A stretch of DNA of 64,000 bases. Origin: an uncultured delta proteobacterium. GTDB lineage: Bacteria; Desulfobacterota; Desulfobacteria; Desulfobacterales; SG8-13. Location: contig CAWKCK010000004.1 in the NCBI GenBank assembly GCA_963848135.1, forward strand, positions 186,001 through 250,000. Reading direction: 5' to 3'. The notes beneath the pieces were generated by a model. The model worked only from the letters and a program-made list of their open reading frames with translations, was not told the origin of the DNA and ran no database searches. This document shows positions 3,175 through 41,991 of this stretch, in pieces (the stretch's first letter is position 1; every line of letters begins with the position of its first letter). The position numbers and the translations under genes were made by a program.

Positions 3175-3531
3175 ATGCCTTCTCCGCAAATGATCCAAAG
3201 ACTACCGGTAAAAGGCACCAACGGCGCGATCGATCTTATCGAGATAGACGCCATATTTTACCTTGAATCCGCTGAAGGTGATACGCTGATTCGAACCGGG
3301 CGCAAGAAACCCTACCGTTCGGTGCAGCGCCTGCATGACCTGGCCAAAAAGCTGCCGGCACCGGTTTTCGTGCAATGCCACCGGGAATACATCGTCAATC
3401 TAAACCGTGTCAGGGCACTGACGCCACGGGGAAGCAGAGACTACGACCTCCGTCTCGATCCGCCGGTCAATCGCCGCATCCCGATTGCCAGGCAGCGCTT
3501 GGAAAAAGTCCGCGCCATCCTTGGGCTGTAG
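3175..3531 (+). CDS. Stand-alone LytTR DNA-binding protein
   Basis: IFYLES...FVQCHREYIVNL...IPIAR LytTR signature. Confidence 0.85.
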   Translation: MPSPQMIQRLPVKGTNGAIDLIEIDAIFYLESAEGDTLIRTGRKKPYRSVQRLHDLAKKLPAPVFVQCHREYIVNLNRVRALTPRGSRDYDLRLDPPVNRRIPIARQRLEKVRAILGL

Positions 3532-3957
3532 ACAATGACTACCATTATTACGACTTGCCCACTGTTTGACCATCCAGGCTGGAAAACGACGTCTCACGGC
3601 TCAGACAGGACAGGGTAAGCCGGAAAACGACAAGTCTGTTAAACCCGGAAATTTCATCGATTGGAGGTTTTTTTGGCCAATCGCACACCTTCGATCAAAT
3701 GATCAGATTTGTGATACCGCATCGCGGAAGGCATTTCGAGGTGATGCTTTAGTCAGTCTACCGCGATCCTCGAATAATACTGGCCATGTAAGCCTCCGGT
3801 TGACCCGAAGAATGACATCTTTTCAGCTCTTTCAATAGATCTTGCGGAGGTACAAAGTGACCCTCGGTTGTCTTTACGCTATCAAAATTCTACTTGATAT
3901 TTGGAATAGGTTGAATTAGAATCTTACCAGTAAGAATATTATAACTGGGAGTCTGTA

Positions 3958-5621: not shown

Positions 5622-6207
5622 GACCGGAATTCGATTCTATCGTAATACTGGATGCTAAAAAGCGGATCCATAAACCAACCCATGTTATTTACCAGCTTGA
5701 GGAAAAAGATGCCGCATCAGCATAATAGCGGTTCTTGAAAGATTCAGCAGCTTGAATTGATTCACCCGAAGGGTCGGCTGATTATCCTTTGCGAATGTCC
5801 GCAAAGGAAAAGTATCTTTGGTCTGTGTCTGTCTGTAAGAATCTGTGTCCATAATATCGTTTGCCTTTGAGCTTTGAGCTTTCAGCCTTGAGCTCACTTC
5901 CTATTGTCTGTGCCTGCCCGGTCCGCTCGTAGGTCCGGAAGATCGTACTGGGGTTAAATTCTGCAATGCAGACCCCTACGGGGATTTAACTGGGTAAATC
6001 TGTGGCTAATAATTCCATAATTTTGTTTTGCCCTTTGAGCTTCATATCAGCGACAACGCCGGTTACATAAAATCGCGTACGATTTTATCCCGATATAAAG
6101 TTTAAAAGTTGAGAACGTCCCCAAAAGCTCTGAATTCGAAATTGACGATTTGTTCATATTTTTATGGATGTTCCCAAGATCCCCAATCTGTTCAACAGGA
6201 GGAAAAC

Positions 6208-9235: not shown

Positions 9236-10468
9236 GGGTAGAGCCCGCAAACAAATCGTGTATCGGCGAGAGAGCCCGTGAATAGGCGTAGGAGCGAAAC
9301 AACTCCGGGAGGGACAATTCCAGGGCCTCTCACTGAACTCTAAGCCTGGATAAGGAATGCTTGAGGCCGACACCAACGGTTCGGATCTCGGATAAACGTA
9401 ACGCTGAGGCGCAGAGTTCGCCGGCAGCTTCATGTAAGCCTGCCGAAGGGAGAGAAAACTCGTCGAAAAAGTGAGAGCTTTGAAAATTTGGTTAGATTAC
9501 CGATTTTATGATTTCTGTCAAATTTTTTACTAAAGTGAGATAAAATTCAGTCTGATATTAGAATTTGTTCATGAAAATTACGTTTTTTCTGGCATTAAAT
9601 AGGTGTTACAAGATCGTTTTCAAGCTGGCCCACAGGTTTTATCCACCCCCGGGCGCACCTATCCACCTTATACGGTAGCGACCTTCCGGATCTTTAATCC
9701 CTTGCGGATATTATAGGCCGCCTGGCGACACCAAGCATCGAAATTGTTTTTTGCGATGGTAGTAAATCTTGCTCTTTTAGCTCCATCGTGCAGGTGACTG
9801 ATTCCGAAGTATTGTTCAACGATATATCTGACTTTTGAAATTTTTGTGTTTCGCTCTATTTCATATTCAGTGATTTTGGCTGTGGTCGAGTCTTTTCGCA
9901 TAATCCCATCGGCGATTTCATTAAGGGCCAGGAAATCCCGGTTGGGCTGACCAGCATATCCTTTGTCGGCATAAACCTTTTCGATAGGTTGTTTGGTGTG
10001 GCGGCTGAAAACGGTACAATAGGGCAGGTAATTGGTATCATGCACGGAAGCCGGGGTCATGGTGGTGGCCAGAATAAAGCCATGTTTGGTATCAACGGAG
10101 GCATGTTCTTTAAGGCCGAAGTGGGGTTCATCGTTTTGCACGACCCAATTGGATTCGAGGTCTCTTGAGAACTTGCGAATATTGCCATTTTTATCGAGTT
10201 TACCTTCAGGAGTATTTCGTTGTTCTCTAACTTCTTTAAGTTGATCATTACTGAGGGGACGGCTGGCGGATTTAACGAGCCTGGCATCGACAGCAACGCC
10301 CTCGTTGATAGTGAGCCCCTGACCTTCAAACTGACGCAGGATCTCGGAGTTAAGCTGATCCATAGCTTGTTTGGACAATCGGGATCTGAAGCGTGAGAAA
10401 GTGGAGTGGTCCGGAGAGGGTTTGCTCAAGGGCAGACCGAGGAACTTTTTAAACGACAGCCGGTCGTT

Positions 10469-10748
10469 CACCCGGTGAAATTGTTTGAGGATTAATGTAT
10501 TACACATATGTTCTGCATAGTGAGAAGGATGGCCAGCTATATGTAGGCTTCACAAAGGACCTCAAACAAAGATTTGATCTGCATAACAAAGGGCGGATTG
10601 AATCAACAAAAGATAGACGGCCATTGAAACTGATCTATTACGAAGCTTGTACAGATAGAGAAGATGCTACTAAGCGTGAAAAACACCTAAAGACACACTA
10701 CGGGCGAATGTATCTAAAGAAACGACTCAAATCTTATTTCACTGGGTA
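10469..10748 (+). mobile_element. 280-bp inverted-repeat-bounded element carrying a GIY-YIG gene
   Basis: IRs ACCCGGTGAAAT (10470) / ATTTCACTGGGT (10747); removing it restores the host reading frame. Confidence 0.85.
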
Positions 10749-10749
10749 A
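10495..10749 (+). CDS. Small GIY-YIG nuclease
   Basis: YYTYVL...LYVGFT.DL..R...H...YYE....A.KRE..LK. Confidence 0.9.
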   Translation: MYYTYVLHSEKDGQLYVGFTKDLKQRFDLHNKGRIESTKDRRPLKLIYYEACTDREDATKREKHLKTHYGRMYLKKRLKSYFTG

Positions 10750-11395
10750 ATCTGGTTTTCCAGTTCGGGATCGGAGTTGATGCGGAACCACTTCTGGAGC
10801 ATCAGGCATTTAAAGAGCAGCAGAGGCGGATAGGCATCGGCGCCTTCACCACTGGTGCCGACCGTGTAATTGCTCATCAAGACCGTATTGATTCTATCCC
10901 AATCGATGGAATCAGCGATTTTTTCCATGAGTTTGAGACTGCGGTTGTGTTTGAGGGAACTGGCGAGAGCGAAATCTGCGAATCCTAAATTATTCTTCAT
11001 CTTTTTATAGCCCATATTATCCTCCGAGTAGTGATAATTGAAGGATATATGGCATAAAATAGATAAAATTACAAGTTAAAACAGATAGATATAATAATAC
11101 AGAGGAATTTTTCTGAAGAATATTCAATCAGAAAGGCTGGGATTTAGGACGCTTTCCTGAGGTTATGCAAAGGTCTCGTAACGATCAAGTCAGGGCTCAT
11201 TTACAAGCGAGTTTATCCGCCGAATTCCTTAACCAAAAACGTAGAAGATAAGTGCGTCCATTTGATTACAAATATTATAACAAGTTGTAATCAATATAAA
11301 AAAGTAAAAGCTTGACAGGGGGAATACAGGATGTCCCCAAAAACTCTATCTCCTTTTATTTCATTTCTATCTTTAATGAGCTGTCGGAGTATTGA

Positions 11396-22726: not shown

Positions 22727-24557
22727 ATGAAAACCGCATTAATATACTCAATCGATAAATATTCTAAAGTAATCATCTATATGATTGTATTAACTGGCAT
22801 ATACTATTCTGCTTATAGCTTCATGTTAAAATGGTGGGAAAAGGAAGATTTCAATTATTGCTATCTTATACCGTTTATTGTGATTTATTTGATATGGGAA
22901 AAACGTAAGGAATTTGAAACCACAGAAATTTCTCATTCTTGGATAGGTTTTTTTCCACTCGTTTTTGGAATTATGCTATATTTTTTAGGAGAATTAGGTG
23001 GTGAATACTATACGCTTTATTTTTCTTCATGGTTGATATTCATCGGCCTCTGCTGGATACATCTCGGTTGGGAAAAACTTAAAATTATCTGGTTCCCTGT
23101 TGTTTTCATCCTGGCTATGTTTCCTCCGCCAAACGCGATTAACCATCCTTTGACTCTTAAGTTCAAACTGTTATCCTCAAAAATTGGTGTGGCTATCATC
23201 CAGGCATATGGCCTTTCCGCCTACCGGGAAGGCAATGTTATAGATCTGGGATTCACTCAACTGCAGGTGGTGGATGCTTGCAGCGGACTGAGGTTTCTGT
23301 ATCCCTTGATTATCATGGCCCTGCTTTTGGCCTATTTTTACAGGGGCAGCTTTTGGAAAAGGGCCATCCTCGTCATATCCGCCGTGCCGATCACAATCAT
23401 CACGAATTCATTCAGGATTGCCATGACCGGCATTCTTTATAAACATTTTGGGGCCGCTGCGGCCGAAGGGTTTTTTCACGGGTTTTCCGGGATGGTTTAT
23501 TTTCATGTTCGCGTTGGCGATATTGTTGCTGGAAATGTGGATTATTAGTGGGTTTCGGTCGATTTTTGGGATTAAATTGGACGCAGAGGATAAGTATAAT
23601 TCAGGGATTGAGGAATTGAGGGATTCAGGAATTGAAAAGCTTGAGGGGCAAAGTGAGAAAGAGCTGAAAAGCAATATTTTAGCCACAGACGCACACAGAC
23701 ACGCACAGACAAAAGAAAGAGATATTTTCCCGGACGACGCTGTCCGGGAAAAACCTTCTGCTGCTTCGCAGTTAAAAGATATTCATTCCGATAACGCCAT
23801 TGACTCACTCGATGGGGAATACCCCGCAACCCGCAACTCGCAACTCGCAACACGAAGCCCCCAAACACAGGAACCCGCAACCCGCAACCCGCAACCCGTA
23901 ACTCCATGGCTGAAAGCCATTCTCCAGCCACCCCAATTCATTGTAGCTGTACTACTGCTGGGAGCCACCCTGGTTTTGGCGCAGGGAGTGGAGTTCCGGG
24001 AAAAGATTCCTATGAGCCGATCATTTTCAGAGTTTCCGTTGCAGGTGGGGGAGTGGACGGGAAAGCGCGACGTGCTGGAGCTCAAATTTATCGAAGAGCT
24101 CGATTTCAAGGATTATATTATTGTGGATTACAGGGACAAAGCCGGAAAGGCTGTGAATTTTTACACGGCCTATTATGATACTCAGCGCAAGGGCGAGTCG
24201 ATCCATTCACCGGAAACCTGTCTGCCCGGCGGCGGCTGGGAGTTTAAAAGAGCCGGCCGCACCACTGTGCCGATGAATCCATCTGACATGACGATCAACC
24301 GTGCCTTCATCGTGCAGGGGGCCGCCAAACAGTTGACCTATTACTGGTTTCCTTTAAGGGATCGTATCGCCACCAATCTCTGGGAGGTCAAGGCCTACAA
24401 TTTCTGGGACGCGCTCACGCGCCAAAGAACCGATGGGGCGCTGGTGCGCCTGGTGACCCCGGTGTACAAAGATGAAAATGTGGCGGATGCGGATGAGCGG
24501 TTGGCGGCGTTCACGCGGGAGATTGTGCCGGTGTTAAAAGAATTTTTACCAAGGTAA
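22727..24557 (+). pseudogene. xrtD: Exosortase-EpsI fusion (XrtD-like) with a frameshift at ~23490
   Basis: VVDACSGLR, N.FRI, FFHGFSG exosortase motifs; EpsI HSPETCLPGGGW, RTDGALVR; an extra G in TCCGGGATGG splits the ORF. Confidence 0.75.
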
Positions 24558-24815
24558 AATGAAAAATTGAGGGATTGAAGGATTTAAGAATTCAGGGATT
24601 GAAGGATTGAAGAATTAAGGGATTGAGGGTAAAGCAAATTCAGGAATTGAGGGATTAAGGGATTGAAGGATTGAAGGATATAGGGATTAGTGAATTATAA
24701 AAAATTTGAAGAGCTGCCGGTTTGGAATCTAGCAAGAGAGTTATGGGCGGTGGTCCCCAAAAACTGGACAATGTGTTAAACTCTGAGTCAGTCCAAACAA
24801 GAAAGGAACTGACAA

Positions 24816-25097
24816 ATGGGCAAAAAGCGAAAAAAGTACAGTTCAGAGTTCAAAGCCAAGGTTGCGTTGGCCGCGTTAAAGAACGAAGAAACCACCGCAG
24901 AGCTGGCTCAGCGCTTCGGCGTGCATCCCACAATGATCAGCGGTTGGAAACGCTCATTGCTTGAAGGCGCCGCCGAGATTTTCGATAAGGGCCAAGGCTC
25001 CCGAAAGCAAACCGATGAAAAGATCGATGAGCTTCATCGGCAAATCGGCAAGCTGAAGGTGGAAAACGATTTTTTATCACGAAAGCTCGACTTCTAA
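24816..25097 (+). CDS. IS3 transposase OrfA
   Basis: KYSSEFKAKVAL HTH; T-run near 25070 is a probable -1 frameshift site. Confidence 0.9.
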   Translation: MGKKRKKYSSEFKAKVALAALKNEETTAELAQRFGVHPTMISGWKRSLLEGAAEIFDKGQGSRKQTDEKIDELHRQIGKLKVENDFLSRKLDF

Positions 25098-25117
25098 GTG
25101 TCAAGGAGCGGCGTCAA

Positions 25118-25951
25118 ATGATCGATGCTAATGACCAGAAGTTGAGCGCGTCCAGACAGTGCGGGATATTGAACCTGAATCGCTCCACCTACTACTACAA
25201 AAAGAAACCAATTAAGCCCGAAGATCTGAAGCTGATGCGCCTGATCGATGAGCAGTATCTAAAGACACCCAGTTGGGGCAGTCGCTCGATGCGAAACCAT
25301 CTTCGCCGAATGGGCTATAAAATCAACCGTAAACGGGTTCAGCGGCTGATGCGGCTAATGGGCCTTGAGGCAATTTATCCGAAACCAAAAACCAGCCGAC
25401 CGCATCCGGCCCATAAAGTCTACCCCTACTTGCTACGAAACACGGTGGTTGACCATCCCAACCAGGTGTGGACAACCGACATCACCTACATTCCGATGAA
25501 CCGTGGCTTTATGTATCTTATTGCCGTCATGGACTGGTACAGTCGCAAAGTTTTATCCTGGCGGGTATCCAATACCCTGGATACCGATTTTTGTATCGAG
25601 GCCGTAGAAGAGGCCATCAGTCGCCACGGTACGCCAGAAATATTTAATACCGATCAAGGCGCTCAATTTACCAGTGCCGGTTTTACAAATTTACTCAAGT
25701 CGCACAATGTGCGGATCAGCATGGATGGCCGCGGCCGTGTCCAGGACAATATTTTCATTGAACGACTGTGGTGGACGCTCAAGTACCAGTATGTTTACCT
25801 GTGGTCTTTTAACAACGGTTCCGAGCTTCGGCAGGGCCTTGGCCAGTGGTTTGGGTTTTACAACGCTGAGCGGTCCCATCAGGCGCTTGACAACTTGACC
25901 CCGGATGAGGTTTACTTCGGTCTTCCCCATCCGTTTGCCGAGGCTGCTTGA
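25118..25951 (+). CDS. IS3 transposase OrfB (DDE)
   Basis: WTTDITY, NTDQGAQF, DNIFIERLW. Confidence 0.95.
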   Translation: MIDANDQKLSASRQCGILNLNRSTYYYKKKPIKPEDLKLMRLIDEQYLKTPSWGSRSMRNHLRRMGYKINRKRVQRLMRLMGLEAIYPKPKTSRPHPAHKVYPYLLRNTVVDHPNQVWTTDITYIPMNRGFMYLIAVMDWYSRKVLSWRVSNTLDTDFCIEAVEEAISRHGTPEIFNTDQGAQFTSAGFTNLLKSHNVRISMDGRGRVQDNIFIERLWWTLKYQYVYLWSFNNGSELRQGLGQWFGFYNAERSHQALDNLTPDEVYFGLPHPFAEAA

Positions 25952-26129
25952 GGCCTCGCTCCCACTACGCCCGACTCAGAGCTTAACTCTAAGCTCAGGC
26001 TGTCCAAGTGATTGGGTCCACCGCCATGTCGTGGAGTGTATCAATTAGTTTCAGAGACCAAACTGAGGAAAGATTTCAGCCTGCGAGATCAAATTTTGCG
26101 GGCAGCTGGTTCGGTAATGGATAATGCTC

Positions 26130-26407
26130 GCCCAGTTAAATAGCTTGTTTTCAATGTACTACACTTATATTCTACATAGCCAACAGGATATGAATTTTTA
26201 CGTTGGGTTTACAAAGAACCTCAAGCTAAGATTTGAGCAGCATGAGAAGGGTCTGGTGGAGTCGACGAAGCACCGGAGGCCACTCAAGCTAATCTATTAC
26301 GAAGCGTGTGTAGTTGAAAAAGATGCTTTAAAGCGAGAAAAATACTTAAAAACATACCATGGAAGAATGTTCATTAAGAGAAGACTCAAATCTTATTTAA
26401 CGGGGTA
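26130..26407 (+). mobile_element. Second GIY-YIG mini-element
   Basis: IRs CCCAGTTAAAT (26131) / ATTTAACGGGG (26405), inside the four-helix-bundle gene. Confidence 0.8.
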
Positions 26408-26408
26408 A
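26154..26408 (+). CDS. Small GIY-YIG nuclease
   Basis: 84 aa, 58/84 identical to 10495..10749 by manual ungapped alignment. Confidence 0.9.
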   Translation: MYYTYILHSQQDMNFYVGFTKNLKLRFEQHEKGLVESTKHRRPLKLIYYEACVVEKDALKREKYLKTYHGRMFIKRRLKSYLTG

Positions 26409-26672
26409 ACGTATGGATTTGATGACGGTTCGCCAAGGGAATTCATAAGATTCTTGGGCTACTCGCAAAGATCATGTGGCGAAATACAATCTCAATTATA
26501 CAGGGCAATTGATTGTCACTACATTACGAAGGATCAGTTCGATTCCGTTTATACCTTGTCGGCTGAATGCAGGAAACAAATAAAGGGCTTCAGAAAATAT
26601 CTTCGAAACTACAGTTCAAACCAAAATTCCTAAATTCCTAAATCCGCAATACATAAATTTAATTACTAAAAC

Positions 26673-28316
26673 ATGATCTACTTCTCCACTCTTCTTTTAG
26701 CGATGTTCATTACCATTGCGCTGATACCGATTTTAAAGCGGTATGCGGTATTCTTGCACGTTGTCGACATGCCCGGCGAACGTAAAGTTCACAACACACC
26801 GGTGCCAAAGGTGGGCGGCATCGCGATGGGTTTAGGTGCATTGGTGCCAGTGTTGATATACGTTTATGGCGACAAATCGGTGTTGTCGATTCTGCTGGGA
26901 ACGGCCATAATTATCGCCTTTGGCGTGCTGGACGATGCCAAGGAGCTGGGGTATAAGGCCAAGTTCTTTGGTCAAGTGGGCGCGGCTTTGGTGGTGGTGT
27001 TCTTCGGCGGGGTGAAGATCTGCTGCCTGGGCAACCTCTTACCTGGAGAGATGGTTCTGCCCGACTGGTTGGCCGTAACCTTGACGATAATTGTGATCGT
27101 GGGCGTCACCAATGCTGTCAACCTGGCTGACGGCCTCGACGGTCTCGCCGGGGGGTTGATGCTGCTCAGTTTCCTTTGCATCAGTTTCATGGCTTACAAG
27201 ATCGGGTACATGTCCATTGCTCTTCTATCGGCCGCCACGGTGGGCGCCATTTTCGGCTTCCTGCGTTTCAACACCTATCCGGCGACCATTTTCATGGGTG
27301 ATGCCGGCAGCCAGCTCCTTGGGTTCCTGGCCATCACCATGGCGATAGCGATTACCCACGGTAACAGTCCCTACAACGTCCTATTTCCACTTATCCTGCT
27401 TGGTTTGCCCATTCTTGATACGCTTTGGGTTATGATCGAAAGAATAAAGAAAGGTAAATCGCCTTTTGTGGCCGACAAGAATCACCTGCATCACAAGCTA
27501 CTGAATCTGGGCCTTTACCATACAGAAGCGGTCTTTACCCTCTACGTTCTGCAGGCAGCGCTGGTGACGACCGCATTTCTGCAACGCTTTTATCCTGAAT
27601 CGACGGCGTTGGTCGTATATTTAGTGTTTTCAGTCGGTATGTTTGTCATTCTTGGTGCCGCAGAAAAACGCGGCTGGCGCTTGGAACGCCCCGGTATCAT
27701 TGACCGGATGATCAAAGACCGGCTCAAAATTTACATCAGAGAGCGATATGTCGGGATTAAGCTGTCCCAAAGCGTCATAGAGATCGGTTTCCCGCTCTTA
27801 TTGATAGTCAACTGTGCCCTGACTGGACGATGTCGCTATTGCCATGGCAGATGTAGCGGCTGCATTGGTCCTGATGATTTTTGGGATCAGCCTGTATCGG
27901 CCGACCAAACTCGGCTGGCGTGTTGCGAATGACGGTTTACTTTTTCCTGCCCCTGATCATTTATTATGGTGAGGTAAACCGGTTGTCGTGGATCCCGGAA
28001 TGAATTTATGCGTTGGTTCAACTTGAACTTCGTGGTGCTGGTTTTCTTTGCGGTGATGACCCTTAAACTGACCCGGCGCAGGGAAGGGTTCAAGCTCAAA
28101 CCGATCGATTTTATCATCCTTTTCGTGGCCATCGTGGTGCCCAACCTGCCGGACACAGCCGTTAACAGCTACCACGCCGGACCGTTGGCAACAAAGATCG
28201 TCGTTTTTTTCTTCACTTTCGAGGTGCTTGTGGGTGAGTTGCGCGGCGCGATGGGACGCCTGGGGGCCGCAATCGCCTTTGCCATGGTGGTGGTGGTGGT
28301 GAAGGGGGTTATATGA
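26673..28316 (+). pseudogene. WecA/MraY-family undecaprenyl-phosphate sugar-1-P transferase with C-terminal frameshifts
   Basis: GVLDD, NAVNLADGLDGLA, FMGDAGS, D.NHLHH; the C-terminal extension continues in ORF 28008..28316. Confidence 0.8.
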
Positions 28317-28500
28317 ATAAAATTTAGGAATTGAGGGATTCAGGAATTCAGGAATTGAGGGATTGAAAATAAGGGTTCAGGGAGTCGAGGAATCGAGAGT
28401 GAAATCTGTGGTTGAATTGGTTTTGTTGGTTACATTGGTTTGATTAGTTTTATTGGTTAAATAGAATCACTTGCGATTTTATATAACGTGGCGTTGCCGC

Positions 28501-29096: not shown

Positions 29097-29392
29097 GAAA
29101 TTGAATACCTATTAGTATGATAAATTGGTATTCATATTTTAGCTACCTACTTATCGGGTTGTCAATGAGTAATGAGATTGAGGAATTGAGGAATAGAAAG
29201 GGCTGTTATAATTGTTACATTGGTTTGAATTGGTTTTATTGGTTAAATAGAATTCACTTGCGGTTTTATATACCGGTAGACATCGGTGCGGTAATAGTTA
29301 ACATAAGTTTTTTCGAAGCCAGAAAATCCCGCGGCGCGGGACCAAGTCTGTGAATGTCCGTGTGCGTCTGTGGCTGAAAGGTTTTTTTAATT

Positions 29393-29634
29393 GGCCACGG
29401 ACACACACAGACGAACACAGACAAGAGATAATTTTCCTTTGCGGACAGTCGCAAAGGAAAATCAGTCAGCCCTTCGGGCAAATAAAGCAAATCCTATCGG
29501 TTGTACGATTGCGAGCAGGTCGCCGAATCCACTCATTTGTGACGAACATGGAAAATCCCGCGCAGCGGGTGGCCTGTTTTGGCCGGTCATGTCGACCGGG
29601 CAAAGTCTGTGCGGGTCCGTGTGGGTCTGTGGTT
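29393..29634. repeat. Repeat A (~245 bp) with inverted CACAGAC-periodic arms
   Basis: Close copy at 31199..31442; related fragments at ~780-850, 5760-5850, 23680-23770, 32020-32250 and 41410-41630. Confidence 0.85.
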
Positions 29635-29667
29635 AACAAGGGGTTTTGAAATGCAATGGAATTGGAT

Positions 29668-29922
29668 TAGCCGCAGACGGACGCAGACGGGCACAGACAA
29701 GAGATTATTTGTCTCGGCCGACCTGGCCGAGACAAGGCGTCTGGCGCTGCGCGTAGCTAATGGTTTTAGAGCACTTGCACCAATCGACGAATATCCACAT
29801 TTGTTAATATCATCGATCATCGATAATTAAAGGAAAGGATTGCTCGCCCGCAGGGCTTGCCAGTTTGGCACAGACAGGTCGTCCGGACCAAAGTCTGTGA
29901 GTGTCCGCGTGTGTCTGCGGTA
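29668..29922. repeat. Repeat B (~255 bp) with inverted CGCAGAC-periodic arms
   Basis: Paralogue at 30508..30765. Confidence 0.85.
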
Positions 29923-30017
29923 AATTATGTGGTTTGATGAAGTTTGATCGGTTACGTCTCAAAAGGCGGTCAGAAAGACGTAGATTCTTGGTTTTCCAAT
30001 AGTAAGGACTTATTATT

Positions 30018-30248
30018 ATGGACATAATATTTTCACGACACGCCAAGAGACGTATGGCCCTGTATGAGATCGATGTCCCTGATGTGAAACTCGCTATCGA
30101 AAGAGGGGAGAAGCAGATTCAGCCAGATGGGAAAATATGTTTTACCATTACATTGGAAAAACTCAAATATCCTTTGAAAGTTGTGACCTTTGAAGAGGCG
30201 GAAACTTATGTTATCATTACGGCTTATCCTCTCAAAAGAATGGGGTAA
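30018..30248 (+). CDS. DUF4258 putative toxin
   Basis: FSRHAKRRM...VIITAYP. Confidence 0.85.
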   Translation: MDIIFSRHAKRRMALYEIDVPDVKLAIERGEKQIQPDGKICFTITLEKLKYPLKVVTFEEAETYVIITAYPLKRMG

Positions 30249-30252
30249 AACG

Positions 30253-30474
30253 ATGAAAATCAGTTACGATAAAAAGGTAGACGCTGTTTATTTAAAATTG
30301 CTTGAATTGAAACCTGACGGTGTTATCGAAGTCGCCGAGGGCATAAATATCGATGTCACTGCGGATGGAAAAATTGTCGGAATTGAATTCTTGGATGCAA
30401 CCCATAAAATATCCATCGACAGTTTGCTGACATACGAAATCGAGCCTGGAAGCATCAGTGAATTGGCGCATTAG
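30253..30474 (+). CDS. DUF2283 putative antitoxin
   Basis: MKISYDKKVDAVYLKL...DGKIVGIEFLDA. Confidence 0.85.
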   Translation: MKISYDKKVDAVYLKLLELKPDGVIEVAEGINIDVTADGKIVGIEFLDATHKISIDSLLTYEIEPGSISELAH

Positions 30475-30507
30475 AAATGAGCTAACAGATAGATCGTACC
30501 ATTAAAT

Positions 30508-30765
30508 TAACCGCAGACGGACGCAGACGAGCGCAGACAAGAGATTATTTGTCTCGGCCGACCTGGCCGAGACAAAGATGTCATGCGCTTCGCGCAGTTT
30601 TGAGCTGCCGGGTACTCGCACAAGTCAATGAATTTGAGCATTAGTGAACCATCACCGATCATCGTTAGATCTACAAAAGAATTTATCGCCTGCAGGGCTG
30701 GCCAATTTGGGCCGGACAGGTCGTCCGGGCTAAAGTCTGCGTGAGTCTGCGTGGGTCTGTGGCTA
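30508..30765. repeat. Repeat B, copy 2
   Basis: Shares GAGATTATTTGTCTCGGCCGACCTGGCCGAGACAA and end arms with 29668..29922. Confidence 0.85.
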
Positions 30766-30787
30766 AATATCATTTTATTGAATTTTA

Positions 30788-30964
30788 AAGGATCCGCTTC
30801 GTCTTGTCATTCCTGCGCGAACAACTGACGAACCAAGGTATCTTCTGGTCGGCAAGATTTCCGAGAGACACTGGTCGGCGGTCTTCACATATCGTGGTGA
30901 AGCCATTCGAATCATATCTGTGCGGAGATCCCGCAAAGAGGAGGTGGAACTTTATGAAGGCTAA
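30788..30964 (+). pseudogene. 5'-truncated BrnT toxin
   Basis: Unlisted frame KDPLRLVIPARTTDEPRYLLVGKI...IRIISVRRSRKEEVELYEG*; no N-terminus. Confidence 0.8.
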
Positions 30965-31175
30965 AGAACTGGACAAAAAATTCGACTCCGGGAAAAGTAT
31001 TTTAAAAGATTTGGACTTGGAAAACGCTGTCAGGCCCGGACAAGAGCATAAAAGAGTTAACGTAGACTTTCCGGCATGGATGGTTTCGCGCTTAGACAAA
31101 GAAGCTAAACGTCTGGGTGTGCCCAGGCAATCATTAATAAAAATTTGGATCGCCGAAAAGCTGCAAGAGTTCTAA
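30954..31175 (+). CDS. BrnA/CopG-type antitoxin
   Basis: MKAKELDKKFD...RVNVDFPAWM...LGVPRQSLIK; RBS GAGGAGG. Confidence 0.85.
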   Translation: MKAKELDKKFDSGKSILKDLDLENAVRPGQEHKRVNVDFPAWMVSRLDKEAKRLGVPRQSLIKIWIAEKLQEF

Positions 31176-31198
31176 CAAAACATTGCAATGTAATATTA

Positions 31199-31442
31199 GC
31201 CACAGACACACACAGACGAACACAGACAAGGGCTTTTTTTTTCCCTTGCGGACGATCGCAAAGGAAAACCAGTCAGCCCTTCGGGCAGATTAAGCAAATC
31301 CTATCGGTTGTAGGATTGCGAGCAGGCCGCCGAATCCACTCATTTATGACGAACATGGAAAATCCCGCGCAGCGGGTGGCCTGTTTTGGCCGGTCATGTC
31401 GACCGGGCAAAAGTCTGTGCGGGTCCGTTTGCGTCTGTGGTT
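31199..31442. repeat. Repeat A, copy 2
   Basis: Near-identical to 29393..29634. Confidence 0.85.
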
Positions 31443-31542
31443 AATAAAGGGTTTTGATGTTTTTTGAACGGCCGCCCCACACGGCCGGTCAGAAGAAAAT
31501 ATTTTCTCCACTAACGCTGTGACTCTGCGGTGGATAAGCTTC

Positions 31543-31758
31543 TCAAGACCAGTTCAGGACCAGCTTTCTCTGGTTTCGGGCACAGTCTGTCAGATATGAA
31601 TTGATCAGCGTTTGATACGGTATGCCTGTTGCTTCGGACATCTCCTTAAAGTATTCGATGACCTCGATACCCAACCGCATGGTCACCTGTTTTTTCAGAC
31701 TCGCAGAATAAGGGTTCTTTTTGCCGGTCATTTTTGAAAAATTATATTCTTTTCTCAT
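31543..31758 (-). CDS. BrnA-family antitoxin
   Basis: MRKEYNFS...VTMRL...YFK...GIPYQTLIN. Confidence 0.85.
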   Translation of the reverse strand: MRKEYNFSKMTGKKNPYSASLKKQVTMRLGIEVIEYFKEMSEATGIPYQTLINSYLTDCARNQRKLVLNWS

Positions 31759-31964
31759 TGCCTATCGCCCCCATAGTAGTGGGTTTCCTTTTTAGTTGCC
31801 TTACGAGCAGATATGATACGAATGGTTGATTCGTCTTCACGATAGCAGTAGCAGACGACCAGGATTCTTATCCCGAATATTTCATGAAATCTTTTCTGCA
31901 CTCGATTTTTGGTTTTGTTAGATTCGGCCTTGCTGGAATCCCATTCGAATCTGATGTGCGTCAT
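31755..31964 (-). pseudogene. BrnT toxin with its centre replaced by an M1 MITE end
   Basis: FEWD..K..N and IRIISARKA are retained; the middle is TCCCGAATATTTCATGAAATCTTTT (31871..). Confidence 0.75.
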
Positions 31965-32337
31965 AAATATATTATAATTACATTGTAATTTATAATGTCA
32001 ACATATAATTTATTTTAGACGGACGCTGCCGTAGGATATTTTTTACCGTCGACGACGCTGTCGACGGTAAACCAGTCAGCCCTTCGGGCAGATTGTTCAT
32101 GTTTCATCGAATGTATTGTTACGGGCAGTTCGTCAAACCGATTCAGTACGACAGTAAACAAGGAAAGCTCCGCGGAGCGGATGACCTGTTTTGGCCGGTC
32201 GGGTCAACCGGGCAAAAGTCTGTGAATGTCCGTGTGGGTCTGTGGCTAATGAATGGCTTTAATGGCTTTTGAGCGGTCGCCTGCCAGGAAAGTGGCTGCA
32301 TGACATTTCTGAAAGGCGGGGCCCTAACCAAAATCCT

Positions 32338-37704: not shown

Positions 37705-40107
37705 ATGAAAAATAGATCCGTCGTCATCCTGATGATTACTCTGTTATCCCTGTCATTCACGCTTGCTTGCGACGGGCCCGAAGAAAAAAAGATGAAGTTC
37801 TTCGATAAAGGCAAGACGTTCTATGAGGAGGGGGACTACGTCAAGGCCCGGCTGGAGTTGAAAAACGCCGTTCAAATCGACCCCAAATTCGCCCAGGGTT
37901 ACTATTACATCGGGCTTGTGGAAATGAAGGAGCAAAACTATCGACAGGCTTTCGGCAATTTTTCCAAGGCCGTGGAACTCGACCCAAAGATTTTCGATGC
38001 CCAATTGGAGATGGGCCGGTTGTACATGGCGGGCCGGGCACAGGACAAGGCACTCGAGAAAGCGGAACTGGTGCTTGCGGCCGAACCGGAGAATGTGAAA
38101 GCCGCGCTTTTGAAGGCCTCGGTATTGCTGCGCGAGAAAAAAGAAACCGAAGCCAGCCAAATTCTCGACGATCTGCTCGGCAAGGGTGTGACCGAACCGG
38201 ATGTCTATCTGCTGCTGGCCCTCATTGCCGCCCAACAGAACGACGCCTCGGGTGCGGTGAGCATTCTGGAGAAAGGATTGACGGCCAACCCGAACGCGGT
38301 CAATATTCACATCTTTCTGGCCCGGGTCTATGCAGGTGCTAAAAACTACAGTGAGGCCGAGGCGGCCATGCAGAAGGTTATCGCCATCGCGCCCGACGAT
38401 GTAAGCCATCGGTTCACTCTGGCAACGCTGCTTTGGCAGTCGGATCAAAGAGCCAAGGCCGACAAGGTGATCGCAGATATTATCAGCGCCGACCCGCAAA
38501 ATGAAGAGAATTTAATCAATGCCGCCCGTTTCTACCTCGCCCAGGAACAGGTCGAAAGCGCGGAAAAACTTTTACAGAAAGGCATCAAGGCGACCCCGAC
38601 AAGTTATCAATTGCGCTTCGCGTTGGCCGAGATTTACATGAATCGCAACCAGCCGGATGCGGCCGAGAAGACACTGAGAGAGAGCTTGACTCTGGGAAAA
38701 GAGCCCGACAGCCCCAATATGTTAAAGGCGAAAACATTGCTGGCGCGGACGCTTTTGGCCAAAGGGGAGGTGGCCGCCGCCGAGGCTCTCGTGGACGAGG
38801 TCATCGAGGCCAACCCCAAGAATGTGGATGCCCATTTCATCAAAGGCCGGCTGTACATGCTGCGTAAAGACGGCGAGGCGGCCGTGGCCGAGTTTCGGAC
38901 CGTGATCACCGAGAAGCCGGAACTCGAGGCCGGGTACTTGAACCTGGCCGAAGCCCACTTGCTGAACAAGCAGAACCAGCTGGCTCTCGACACCTTGCGC
39001 AGTGCGGTCAGTGCGCTTCCGGAATCGAAGAACCTGCTCCGGGCCCTCGCCCAGGTATACGCGGCGCAGAAGAATTATGGTGAGGCCGAAAAGCAGCTCA
39101 ACCGCATCTTAGAAATCGATCCCCAGGACATTGGTGTATACGCCAACCTGGGGGACCTGTATGCCTACACCGGTAAGACCGGGGATGCTGAAAACACCTA
39201 CCGTAAAATTATCCAGCAGGCACCGGATAAAGCTCTTGGCTATATCAAACTGAGCCGGTTCTACCTCAAGGAGAAGCAACCGGACAAGGCCCTGGCCGTG
39301 TTGGAGGGGGCCTATCAGAATAACCCGCAATCGGCCCAGATCCTTTCCAGCCTCGTTCAAACCTACATCGGCAACAAACAATTTGACAAGGCCGTCGCTG
39401 TTTGCCAGACGCAAGTGGACCAAAATCCGAAAGACGCCTTTTCCTACAACCTTCTGGGTGCAGTATACACCGCCAACAAAGACTTTCCTGAAGCTGAAAA
39501 AGCCTTGACCAGAGCGACAGAATTGCGACCCCTCTGGCCGGCGCCTTACAACAATCTGGCGCGGATCTACCTGGCCCAGGGAAAGACGGCCGAAGCCGTT
39601 GCCAAATTCGAAGATGCCCTGGCGGCCAATCCTCAAAACGCCGGGGCATACCTGGCGCTCGGCTCGATTTACGAACAGAAAAACGACAGCCCCAATGCCA
39701 TTAAGGTTTACGAAAGGGCTCTCGAGGTTCATCCGAGCATGTGGGCTGCCGCCAACAACCTGGCTTTTCTCCTCGGCGAATCGTCCGGCGATCCGAAAAC
39801 CTTGGAGCACGCCTTGTCCCTGGCCCGCAAGGCCAACGACCTGAGGCCGAACGAGCCCCTGGTGCTGGACACCCTGGCCTGGATTCAGTACAAGCGCGGC
39901 GAAATGACCGAGGCCCGTCAGAATCTAACGGCGGCATTGGACCAAGCGCCTGAAAATCCCGTGTTCAACTATCACATGGGGGTAATACTATACGAGAATG
40001 GTAACACCGTGGAAGCCAAACAAAAACTGGAGACCGCTTTGGCCGGCAAACAGACTTTTGCCGGGCGGGATAAGGCTGAAAAACTGCTGAAGCAACTTGG
40101 GAATTAG
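37705..40107 (+). CDS. TPR lipoprotein (PrsT-like, exosortase/EPS system)
   Basis: Lipobox TLAC, many TPRs, AANNLA..., DTLAWI. Confidence 0.85.
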   Translation: MKNRSVVILMITLLSLSFTLACDGPEEKKMKFFDKGKTFYEEGDYVKARLELKNAVQIDPKFAQGYYYIGLVEMKEQNYRQAFGNFSKAVELDPKIFDAQLEMGRLYMAGRAQDKALEKAELVLAAEPENVKAALLKASVLLREKKETEASQILDDLLGKGVTEPDVYLLLALIAAQQNDASGAVSILEKGLTANPNAVNIHIFLARVYAGAKNYSEAEAAMQKVIAIAPDDVSHRFTLATLLWQSDQRAKADKVIADIISADPQNEENLINAARFYLAQEQVESAEKLLQKGIKATPTSYQLRFALAEIYMNRNQPDAAEKTLRESLTLGKEPDSPNMLKAKTLLARTLLAKGEVAAAEALVDEVIEANPKNVDAHFIKGRLYMLRKDGEAAVAEFRTVITEKPELEAGYLNLAEAHLLNKQNQLALDTLRSAVSALPESKNLLRALAQVYAAQKNYGEAEKQLNRILEIDPQDIGVYANLGDLYAYTGKTGDAENTYRKIIQQAPDKALGYIKLSRFYLKEKQPDKALAVLEGAYQNNPQSAQILSSLVQTYIGNKQFDKAVAVCQTQVDQNPKDAFSYNLLGAVYTANKDFPEAEKALTRATELRPLWPAPYNNLARIYLAQGKTAEAVAKFEDALAANPQNAGAYLALGSIYEQKNDSPNAIKVYERALEVHPSMWAAANNLAFLLGESSGDPKTLEHALSLARKANDLRPNEPLVLDTLAWIQYKRGEMTEARQNLTAALDQAPENPVFNYHMGVILYENGNTVEAKQKLETALAGKQTFAGRDKAEKLLKQLGN

Positions 40108-40665
40108 GGAGTGGGGCATTCAGGAATTAAGGGATTAAGGATTAAGGAATTATAGGAAGACACTCGAACCCTTGCGTCCCTGATCCCTGATAAGAAAACT
40201 ATCTAAATGTTCAAAATTTATCCTGTGAAATTCTCAAAAGATACGAGCGAAGCGGATTTCACCGGGACGATCTCAACGATCAACGTTGGAAGTGCCTGAA
40301 GTTAAAATAGGGGACACGGATTCACGCAGACGGGCGCGGATGGGGAAAGAGCTCGAAGCTCAAGGCAACAGAAGCACGTTGGCGGTTGGAGGGTTGAGGT
40401 CGGGGGCAACCCGTAACACGCAACTCGTAACGCGCAACCCGTAATCTCAAGGGGATAAGGATTTGGAAATAGAGAATTAGGGGATATCTCACACCCGCTC
40501 CCGCTGGTCGCTCGAGCGCGTTGGGGGCGCAGAGATAATTTTTGGCGTTGAACGGGTCATCACCATATAGGTGTCGTCCGTTATCGGAATAGTTCCTCAA
40601 TAGTCTGCTATAGTTCAAGCACTTGTTTCATAAAATTTACGAAGGAAATTTTATTCAGGAAAGGA

Positions 40666-41256
40666 ATGAAGATGACGACATTTAAGGGGAAACTGCTATT
40701 TGTCCTGGTTGTTTGCCTGACGGTGGTAGCGGCGACGGCTGGAGCGGCTGACACGACCGCACAGGCACTGGGACAGGATTACATCATCGGGCCCGGTGAC
40801 GTATTAGAGATATCGGTGTGGAAGGAAGAAGCCCTGACCAAACTGGTAACCGTATTGCCTGACGGCAAAATCGCCTTTCCGCTGATTGGCGAGGCGGTAG
40901 CCGACGGCTGGACGGTTGCGCAGCTGAAAAAAGAAATCGAATCCCGGCTGGCCCGCTTCGTTCCGGATCCGGTACTGTCGATAAGCGTTTATCAGATGAA
41001 CAGCTTAATGGTCTACGTGGTGGGAAAAGTAAACAGGCCCGGCCGATTTGAACTCAACACCAACATCGACGTTTTACAGGCCTTGTCTCTTGCTGGCGGA
41101 CTTAACAGTTTCGCCAAGCGCGGACAGATAAAGGTCTTCCGCAAAAAAGACGGTAATACCAAGATCTTCGATTTCGATTACGATGATGTGACCGAAGGGA
41201 AGAAACTGGAACAGAACATTCAGCTGGTGAGAGGGGATGTGGTTGTCGTACCCTAA
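40666..41256 (+). CDS. Polysaccharide export protein (Wza/EpsE family)
   Basis: YIIGPGDVLEISVW, PDGKIAFPLIG, GDVVVVP. Confidence 0.9.
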   Translation: MKMTTFKGKLLFVLVVCLTVVAATAGAADTTAQALGQDYIIGPGDVLEISVWKEEALTKLVTVLPDGKIAFPLIGEAVADGWTVAQLKKEIESRLARFVPDPVLSISVYQMNSLMVYVVGKVNRPGRFELNTNIDVLQALSLAGGLNSFAKRGQIKVFRKKDGNTKIFDFDYDDVTEGKKLEQNIQLVRGDVVVVP

Positions 41257-41991
41257 TAAAATCGCTCGCGATTTTATATAACGCGGCGGTGCCGCTAAAA
41301 GTAAGGTCAAAGGAAGGGAAGGGAATATTCAGGAATTGAGGGATTAGGGGATTTATCTCACACCCGCTCCCGTTGGTCGCTTGAGTGCGCCGAGGGCGCA
41401 GAGATATATGGGCCACAGACCCACGCAGACAAACACAGACGTTAGATAAATTTTCCTTTGCGCGCATTCACAAAGGAGAAACAGTCAACCCTGCAGGTGA
41501 AAAAACAAAAAAGACGGGTTTTTATCCCGCACAGCGAGTGGCCTGTTTTGGCCGGTCAATTTATCCTGAGCTTTGTCGAAGGAGTCGACCGGGCATAAAA
41601 TCTGTGCTGATCCGTGTGTGTCCGAGGCTGAAGGGTTGGGCCCCAATTACAAACTTAAGAGCTTTGCTTACTCAGCGTGCTCTGTGAGAGACAGGAAGAG
41701 GCTCAAAGGTCAAAGCTGAAAGGTCAAAGATGAAAGATTAATAGTTCAAAGTGCCTAAAGTGAACTAAAGTTTGAAAATAGGGCACAGATTTGCGCAGAT
41801 AGATACAGACAAAAGAAAGTGAGCTCAAAGCTGAAAGGTCAAAGCAATAGAAGCACGTTGGAGGTTAGAGGGTTGAGGTTGGAGGCAACCCGTAACACGC
41901 AACTCGTAACCCGCAACCCGTACTCTCAAAGCTGAAAGAAGAATAAATGATAGCATTCGGATTACACCAGTTGATGGCGATCGGAGGCTGC

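Follow-up and report, generated by a model that had tools for sequence, protein, structure and literature searches.

The window, the 64,000-nucleotide stretch of DNA analysed here, contains two copies of a short element built around a GIY-YIG nuclease gene. Copy 2 spans positions 26127–26409 (283 bp; all features described are on the plus strand unless stated otherwise) and comprises an 84-codon gene flanked by 11-bp inverted arms. It begins with a tetranucleotide, the left foot CTCG (26127–26130), which is of the CYYG type and is absent from the empty allele described below. The left arm, CCCAGTTAAAT (26131–26141), provides the 5′ strand of a predicted helix P1, and the leader (26142–26147) provides the 5′ strand of a predicted helix P2, shortened to 6–7 bp in this copy versus 9–10 bp in most relatives. 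The gene (26154–26408) encodes a single-domain nuclease of 84 residues with Tyr5, Tyr16, Gly18, Arg26, His30 and Glu62 intact. Within it, the coding segment Leu-Lys-Leu-Arg-Phe-Glu (26222–26237) supplies the 3′ strand of P2 and the 5′ strand of P3, with the branch point at 26227/26228, and the segment 26385–26405, which encodes Leu-Lys-Ser-Tyr-Leu-Thr-Gly, supplies the 3′ strand of P3 followed by the right arm, the 3′ strand of P1. The right arm, ATTTAACGGGG (26395–26405), is followed by the right foot TAAA (26406–26409; TTTA on the opposite strand), which includes the stop codon, such that the final codons and the stop of the nuclease gene fall within the right end of the element. The core, measured from arm to arm, is 275 bp (26131–26405), and of the 11 arm positions 10 are paired, position 4 being an A·G mismatch. 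Five non-host bases, CGTAT (26410–26414), stand beyond the right foot and together with G26126 form an unexplained junction scar. A 94-residue reading frame from the ATG at 26124 begins outside the element, and this ATG is probably not the true start. A scan for promoters and terminators gave no signal above chance. The 11-mer arm pair alone is weak evidence (7 matches when one mismatch is allowed versus 2.5 expected), and so the case for the arms rests on the family data given below.

Copy 2 lies in a four-helix-bundle gene, as a first-pass annotation of the DNA had proposed. Its flanks match PF05635 at positions 16–45 and 49–105, as well as TIGR02436, and intact host orthologues of 126 residues read SVMDNIAEGFDD at the site, which identifies the two host halves as parts of one gene. 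These orthologues also align to a first piece, codons 1–18, at 24690–24745; thus, the host gene is broken twice. The middle piece (26026–26125) ends at the Asn codon of SVMDN, and the last piece (26415–26633) runs from GFDDG to the stop codon. The other interruption, upstream of copy 2 and missed by the first-pass annotation, is an IS3-family element at about 24746–26025 (NF033516, 282 bits; ends read by eye), which is flanked by an ATG direct repeat.

The junctions of copy 2 are defined by the 126-residue orthologues together with an empty allele, and both place the insertion at N|IAEG, within the motif SVMDN(IAE)GF where it had been expected. The empty allele, a contig of run X2 that differs at 1 of 221 bases of the host 3′ half, continues AAT ATA GCA GAA GGA, and the filled allele in the window reads AAT, G, CTCG, the 275-bp core, TAAA, CGTAT and GGA. 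Nine host bases, the Ile-Ala-Glu codons, were therefore lost without duplication, and ten non-host bases lie outside the arms (G and CTCG on the left, TAAA and CGTAT on the right), which resolves the junction that had been described as less clean than that of copy 1. A contig of run X1, possibly the source sample, is identical across 25950–26185, which rules out an assembly error at the left junction.

Copy 1 (10467–10750) lies in an IS5-like (DUF772/DDE) transposase gene on the minus strand. The protein encoded by its GIY-YIG reading frame (10495–10749) shares 58 of 84 residues (69.05%) with that of copy 2, exactly as annotated at first pass, and the two copies are 72% identical in DNA sequence. 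The architecture is the same, as claimed; the claim of equal length did not hold, the arm-to-arm length being 276 bp in copy 1 versus 275 bp in copy 2. The compensatory difference between the arms of the two copies (TGAAAT/ATTTCA versus TTAAAT/ATTTAA) is real. The right arm of copy 2 is coding (Tyr-Leu/Phe-Thr-Gly), and the arm swap between the copies also changes Leu to Phe. At its insertion site, copy 1 carries the foot TTCA in place of host TTGA: TTGA stands at this position in a pair of intact paralogues from the genome and in a third from a congener, and the empty alleles of runs X1, X2 and X7 have TTGA, TTTA or TTAA and never TTCA. Thus, the left four bases are either brought in by the element or altered during insertion, and a purely host origin of the feet was ruled out for both window copies. 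The two insertions are independent, as had been surmised, with different host genes and intact empty alleles of each. Given filled and empty alleles, the element is almost certainly mobile. Close gene-bearing copies in this genome (G000) are just these two, plus a handful of gene-less miniatures; the one at 5952–5998 (no strand assigned) has one intact arm with its foot, one worn arm and two small hairpins.

The GIY-YIG gene is the sole gene of the element. A profile search found no DDE transposase encoded in it, nor does it encode a reverse transcriptase. The copy 2 protein matches the Pfam GIY-YIG family (PF01541, 58 bits) over its entire 84 residues, with no DNA-binding extension, and its predicted structure is a compact single domain (pLDDT 91.8). 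Its sequence matches in the PDB are the UPF0213 proteins 1zg2 and 1ywl only (E values of 3e-6 and 4e-6), which have been assigned to the prokaryotic Slx1 family (PMC1564403). TIGR01453 scores 16 bits on the element protein, below its cut-off of 56, and the named GIY-YIG clusters in an Atlas search were generic ones only.

A total of 230 loci were gathered: 8 viral, at least 121 matches to the right-end pattern in genome contigs, 80 of 577 metagenome matches and 21 from genome searches. A protein match was present in 149, of which 129 could be parsed with both arms (125 unique); among the other 20, 10 have no right arm and 10 no nearby left arm. Pair counts use 123 copies, leaving out two rows with misplaced arms; the tree uses 113, leaving out twelve distant or odd rows of the 125; and helix counts use 107, leaving out six broken frames as well. 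Named carriers include Desulfobacterota, Patescibacteria, Planctomycetota, Bacteroidota and Cloacimonadota. The distribution is patchy, with 8 of 251 genomes of the class and 12 of 401 of the phylum positive, G000 counted. A protein search yielded 5,775 homologues, some of which may not belong to elements. No plasmid record matched the protein at an E value of 1e-5, and viral contigs gave 8 weak partial protein matches only, with the right-end pattern absent. More distant GIY-YIG relatives (L013, L141–L145 and L148; 46–58% identity) have variant arms, sometimes a spacer between the stop codon and the arm, and the same kinds of host genes. One more distant element, L142 (G285:C4, ~3436–3687), lies inside an AAC-rich run that resembles, we assume, the template or variable repeat of a diversity-generating retroelement.

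Across the 123 copies, arm position 7 is a Watson-Crick pair in 120 (T-A 103, G-C 14, C-G 3) compared with 90.5 by shuffling, and position 4 in 89 compared with 58, although such column shuffles ignore kinship. Since the left arm was placed wherever it best matched the right arm, and some copies were retrieved by the right-arm pattern, pairing is inflated at invariant columns. With correction for the tree (starred branches), four of seven independent pairs changed the same way at position 7 (p = 0.125) and about six of eight at position 4 (p = 0.03), with almost no changes in the opposite direction at either position among independent pairs. Judged from these alignments, the tree-corrected support for arm covariation is modest. 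The four bases outside each arm are anti-paired at position −2 (TTTA/TGAA 29, TTCA/TAAA 25, TTTA/TAAA 7, TTCA/TGAA 0) and are not under selection for perfect pairing. The two common end forms are mirror images of one another, and likewise the A·C (13) and G·T (7) mismatches at position 4, which suggests that the interior inverts between the arms or that one arm serves as the template for recopying the other. Of the 123 copies, 106 have CYYG or TYYA as their left foot and 117 have complementary first and last bases there; TAAA or TGAA forms the right foot in 113, a preference partly forced by the stop codon. Both CYYG and TYYA are sequences of DNA type II tetraloops (PMC9975016). The notion that the feet are a fixed trait of each lineage was rejected, as the foot changes 16 times between CYYG and TYYA and tracks the host site, being CYYG in 30 of 30 copies at the four-helix-bundle site.

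Both window copies are predicted to fold, as DNA, into a perfect three-way junction with zero unpaired branch bases (z scores of −3.0 and −3.3). The arms form P1, the leader and the Leu-Lys-Leu codons form P2, and the Arg-Phe-Glu codons and the Leu-Lys-Ser codons form P3. Two compensatory changes in P2 separate copies 1 and 2. Over the 107 rows, 94% of P2 and 97% of P3 pairs are Watson-Crick, compared with at most 41% when the strands are slid. P3 is mostly invariant coding sequence. In P2, several columns have two common pair types (for example, G-C 60/A-T 39 and C-G 51/T-A 51), non-synonymous changes included; tree-corrected column by column, none reaches p < 0.05 alone, the best being 0.0625. 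The first-pass annotation had argued from the co-varying arms of the two copies that end pairing is functional. Covariation could not be shown from two copies alone; over the 123 copies the claim is supported for the arms, not for the outer four bases, and the functional unit is larger than end pairing, namely the predicted three-way junction.

Both flanks match one host family by HMM in 36 of the 125 copies. The split hosts are the four-helix bundle (23), the IS5-like transposase (6), PDDEXK_3, which we take to be GxxExxY (4), a family that is presumably ORF6N (2), and a bAvd-like protein (1). The four-helix-bundle gene is broken at the same codon as in copy 2 in 22 of the 23 cases, and three database proteins (P0021, P0027 and P0034) are in-frame fusions of the N-terminal half of the four-helix bundle with GIY-YIG at this site. 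The 30 tree rows labelled with it (21 through HMM matches of both flanks, 5 through one flank, 4 by eye) are clustered and do not form one clade, with 14 label changes versus 26.6 when shuffled and at least 5 forced by starred branches. Host-site labels as a whole cluster on the element tree (22 changes versus 54.8 shuffled). For 26 same-site copies with long flanks, mean identity is 72% between elements and 48.5% between flanks, with a correlation of 0.14; L189 and L073 have flanks that are 91% identical and elements that are 76% identical. The possibility of one old insertion inherited with its flanks was rejected: host halves match different intact subfamilies closely (around copy 2, 84–92% amino acid identity to P0121 and 1 difference in 221 bases to the empty allele) and the nearest sampled element is 75% identical. 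The tree also includes 52 of 113 copies at unclassified, mostly intergenic, unrelated sites; 25 of these 52 have an ATG within a few bases 3′ of the right arm, often overlapping the stop codon. Four copies (L026, L205, L215 and L219) form a well-supported clade (100/98) that occupies one codon of a candidate transposase gene, by motif presumably of the Y1 type, and includes both mirror end forms.

With the element taken as the core plus the right foot, a direct repeat of two or more bases is absent at 111 of 123 junctions and none exceeds three, so target duplication was rejected. Zero to nine host bases are lost per insertion, and the flanking consensus beyond the feet is slight. Among same-site copies, the class of junction scar changes 11 times on the element tree versus 11.4 when shuffled (50 of 110 branches open), and the foot type 14 times versus 12.7 on what is a poorly resolved tree. 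Tandem copies with one common foot occur at L164, L141, L213 and L215. In L014 (G219:C15), the two flanks match different IS5-like sites, as would result from deletion of the DNA between two hot spots.

The reading frame is open in 107 of 113 copies. Tyr16, Gly18 and Arg26 are present in 107 of 107 and Glu62 in 106, and differences by codon position are 0.24/0.15/0.50. This pattern supports selection on the nuclease protein, even in elements that lie inside dead host genes. By the same token, open frames and near-invariant catalytic residues in such elements support a need for the nuclease in movement.

Among 250 loci, many of them selected by right arm, 64 contain gene-less miniatures with these arms, 81 in all, compared with 0.2 in mononucleotide shuffles. 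Of the 33 that are 36–80 nt long, 25 fold into two hairpins on a stem, versus 6.6 when shuffled. Their loops are enriched in xC-GNA-Gx triloops (23 versus 0.9), presumably stable hairpins of the DNA type, and in GCGNAGC (15 versus 0.25). In L018, L096, L147 and L399, a miniature is nested within an element at one spot, three bases past the P2/P3 branch point; the outer elements are 70–80% alike, and three of them lie in different four-helix-bundle hosts. Either the nesting spot is itself a target, or dead elements are moved in trans. Five loci (L032, L074, L106, L107 and L108) contain similar miniatures of 75–78 nt at one repeated host site with differing feet, TTCA or CTTG on the left and TAAA or TGAA on the right.

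The explanation that we favour, and consider somewhat better than evenly supported, is that of a 283-bp nuclease-only element that inserts without duplication, folds as single-stranded DNA into the predicted three-way junction, and moves through nicking at its feet by its own nuclease followed by host repair. The fold would form on either strand once the region becomes single-stranded. By analogy with SsnA, which acts on a hairpin, and with Slx1, which acts on branched DNA, the nuclease would bind the junction and nick each folded strand just outside the CYYG or TYYA foot, on the 5′ side of the stem. Hydrolytic nucleases have no ligation activity, and the joining of element to target is therefore an assumption of the model; as no covalent tyrosine or DDE chemistry is evident, host microhomology joining or template switching is proposed to complete the insertion. 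Repair of this kind would explain the ragged junctions and the feet that overwrite similar host bases, and the model also fits the lack of duplications, the variable host loss, the tandems with a shared foot and the L014 deletion. Hot spots would arise where a conserved codon approximates a loose YYYR^YNRR target within a gene that the host can afford to lose; given the slight flanking consensus, a loose target does not obviously explain why the hot spots are so sharp. The miniatures would be moved in trans. Two read comparisons, which covered contigs, list no back-joints, and neither cleaved, excised nor circular forms were seen.

The sharp reuse of conserved codons, such as the four-helix-bundle codon, is what homing by short homology would produce. 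The nuclease would then cut empty alleles at the conserved codon, and repair templated by a donor paralogue interrupted at the same codon would bring in the element together with a few adjacent bases; the fold would serve regulation or self-protection, and new sites would be rare accidents. Homing best explains the foreign bases at the copy 2 junction, where the scar G-TCG..CG resembles the Val-Ala codons of a paralogue (an NVAEG variant exists in P0128, and L170 and L147 share the left five bases of copy 2). The clustering of host-site labels on the tree agrees with it, and GIY-YIG homing endonucleases are established (PMC1564403). Nonetheless, neither scar class nor foot type follows the tree, with the open branches noted above; the 52 copies at unrelated sites and the spread of gene-less miniatures are not what homing predicts, and the protein has no DNA-binding extension. 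We regard homing as unlikely. That the element is instead a passenger-carrying MITE, its hairpin ends moved by an HUH enzyme (IS200/RAYT-like) or another transposase and its GIY-YIG gene being cargo or a maintenance nuclease, appears quite improbable. In having tetranucleotides at the foot of a hairpin and no duplication, the element does recall IS200/IS605 and REP elements (PMC6006769), and G000 has four Y1 transposase matches. However, none of the four Y1 loci contains a foot-bearing element arm, and the left tetranucleotide of IS200/IS605 is the intact target, whereas here the foot overwrites host bases and the loss varies. The coding sequence, moreover, builds two of the three predicted helices, and the active site remains under selection inside dead host genes.

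The fold might also act as RNA, in translational control of a toxic nuclease or as an intermediate copied by a host reverse transcriptase. P2 uses the leader just 5′ of the start codon and often has G·T pairs in the sense strand, and the 25 intergenic-type copies with an ATG just 3′ of the right arm are probably co-transcribed. Yet A·C pairs, which are G·T only on the antisense strand, are also common in P3 and at P1 position 4, and the loops of the miniatures are enriched in GCGNAGC. Rfam has no match to the element (one chance match, E value of 0.51, lies inside the IS3), and the element encodes no reverse transcriptase. An RNA role seems very improbable.

Among known systems, the closest resemblance is to Ssn, in which SsnA recognises a hairpin in single-stranded DNA and cleaves a few bases 5′ of it (Chenal et al. 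2025, PMC11893778). The two share a small single-domain GIY-YIG protein (<150 residues; 84 here) beside a cognate structured repeat, and many gene-less repeats; the catalytic Tyr, Tyr and Glu are equivalent. The layout of Ssn was likened to that of an insertion sequence, its mobile origin being only hypothesised by the authors (PMC11893778). The SRM motif of Ssn is absent within 500 bp of the gene from all 123 loci, among them the two window copies (0.35 occurrences in shuffles), and the same pattern flanks three proteins found in NTS loci. In a tree with long-branch warnings, which served as a proxy for membership of the cd10448 clade, 12 element proteins fall on one side of a branch (97/97) and the three SRM-flanked proteins on another (99/98); an element protein and an SRM-flanked protein are 37% identical over 68 residues. 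By motif, and probably by phylogeny, the element is distinct from Ssn. In addition, the element ends are predicted to pair with each other and with coding sequence, whereas the Ssn repeats, in the account cited, are hairpins of their own outside the gene, and gene insertions with empty alleles are shown for the element.

IS200/IS605 and REP/RAYT elements, as described in PMC6006769, resemble the element in their structured single-stranded ends (predicted here), foot tetranucleotide, lack of duplication and hairpin derivatives. In contrast to them, the element has no HUH tyrosine transposase, its junctions are imprecise and its foot overwrites the target; its ends are terminal inverted repeats that would close a three-way junction rather than two subterminal hairpins. 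Insertion is not precise 3′ of an unchanged tetranucleotide, as TTGA became TTCA at copy 1 and nine host bases were lost at copy 2. The Slx1-like UPF0213 proteins (1zg2 and 1ywl) share the minimal domain without a C-terminal Asn, but are described as vertically inherited repair proteins (PMC1564403), whereas here the gene forms the body of a mobile element; cleavage of branched DNA by eukaryotic Slx1 is the proposed parallel to the element nuclease. Free-standing GIY-YIG homing endonucleases of the T4 Seg or I-TevI type are also selfish genes that reuse conserved codons, but the element has no DNA-binding extension and no intron or intein, destroys its host gene, and has inverted ends, miniatures and many unrelated sites. 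Bacterial MITEs such as Correia and RUP are short gene-less inverted-repeat derivatives with target duplications and DDE partners. The miniatures are alike in this respect, while the full-length partner here encodes a GIY-YIG nuclease. Terminal inverted repeats are common to the element, with its 11-bp covarying arms, and to classical DDE insertion sequences and MITEs, whose DDE transposase and fixed-length duplication are absent here.

The literature searched, mostly titles and abstracts, holds no description of such an element, and the supplements of the Ssn paper may list such proteins. On present evidence, this kind of element is new, and its mechanism is a proposal. The chances are about even that it represents a new class of autonomous DNA of ~280 bp, in which a Slx1-like GIY-YIG nuclease replaces the transposase, reads a junction formed by its own coding strand, nicks each strand just beyond a foot of type II mini-loop sequence, relies on host repair for pasting, and drives a large family of three-way-junction repeats without a gene in Desulfobacterota, Patescibacteria, Planctomycetota and Bacteroidota. 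This locus contributes a near-identical empty allele at a hot-spot codon and feet that overwrite host bases; the locus and its relatives together contribute the apparent type II loop composition of the feet, the mirror-image end forms and the nested miniatures. To our knowledge, prokaryotic transposition relies on DDE, DEDD, HUH, serine, tyrosine or Cas1 enzymes. Spread by a hydrolytic nuclease alone, if true, would add a route to these, and ~280 bp is very small for an autonomous element. The filled and empty alleles are direct genomic evidence for the idea, raised in the Ssn paper, of mobile small GIY-YIG genes with hairpins. The 84-residue protein becomes a candidate structure-specific single-stranded DNA nuclease with a defined substrate, and many proteins annotated as 'GIY-YIG family protein', as well as the four-helix-bundle/GIY-YIG fusions, would be insertion products.

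Elsewhere in the window, dense families of short tandem and dispersed repeats occupy 23590–24700, 28305–28400, 29337–32260 and 40085–41940, where they separate the small accessory genes of a polysaccharide-type locus; in other loci, similar repeats contain insertions of the element's relatives.
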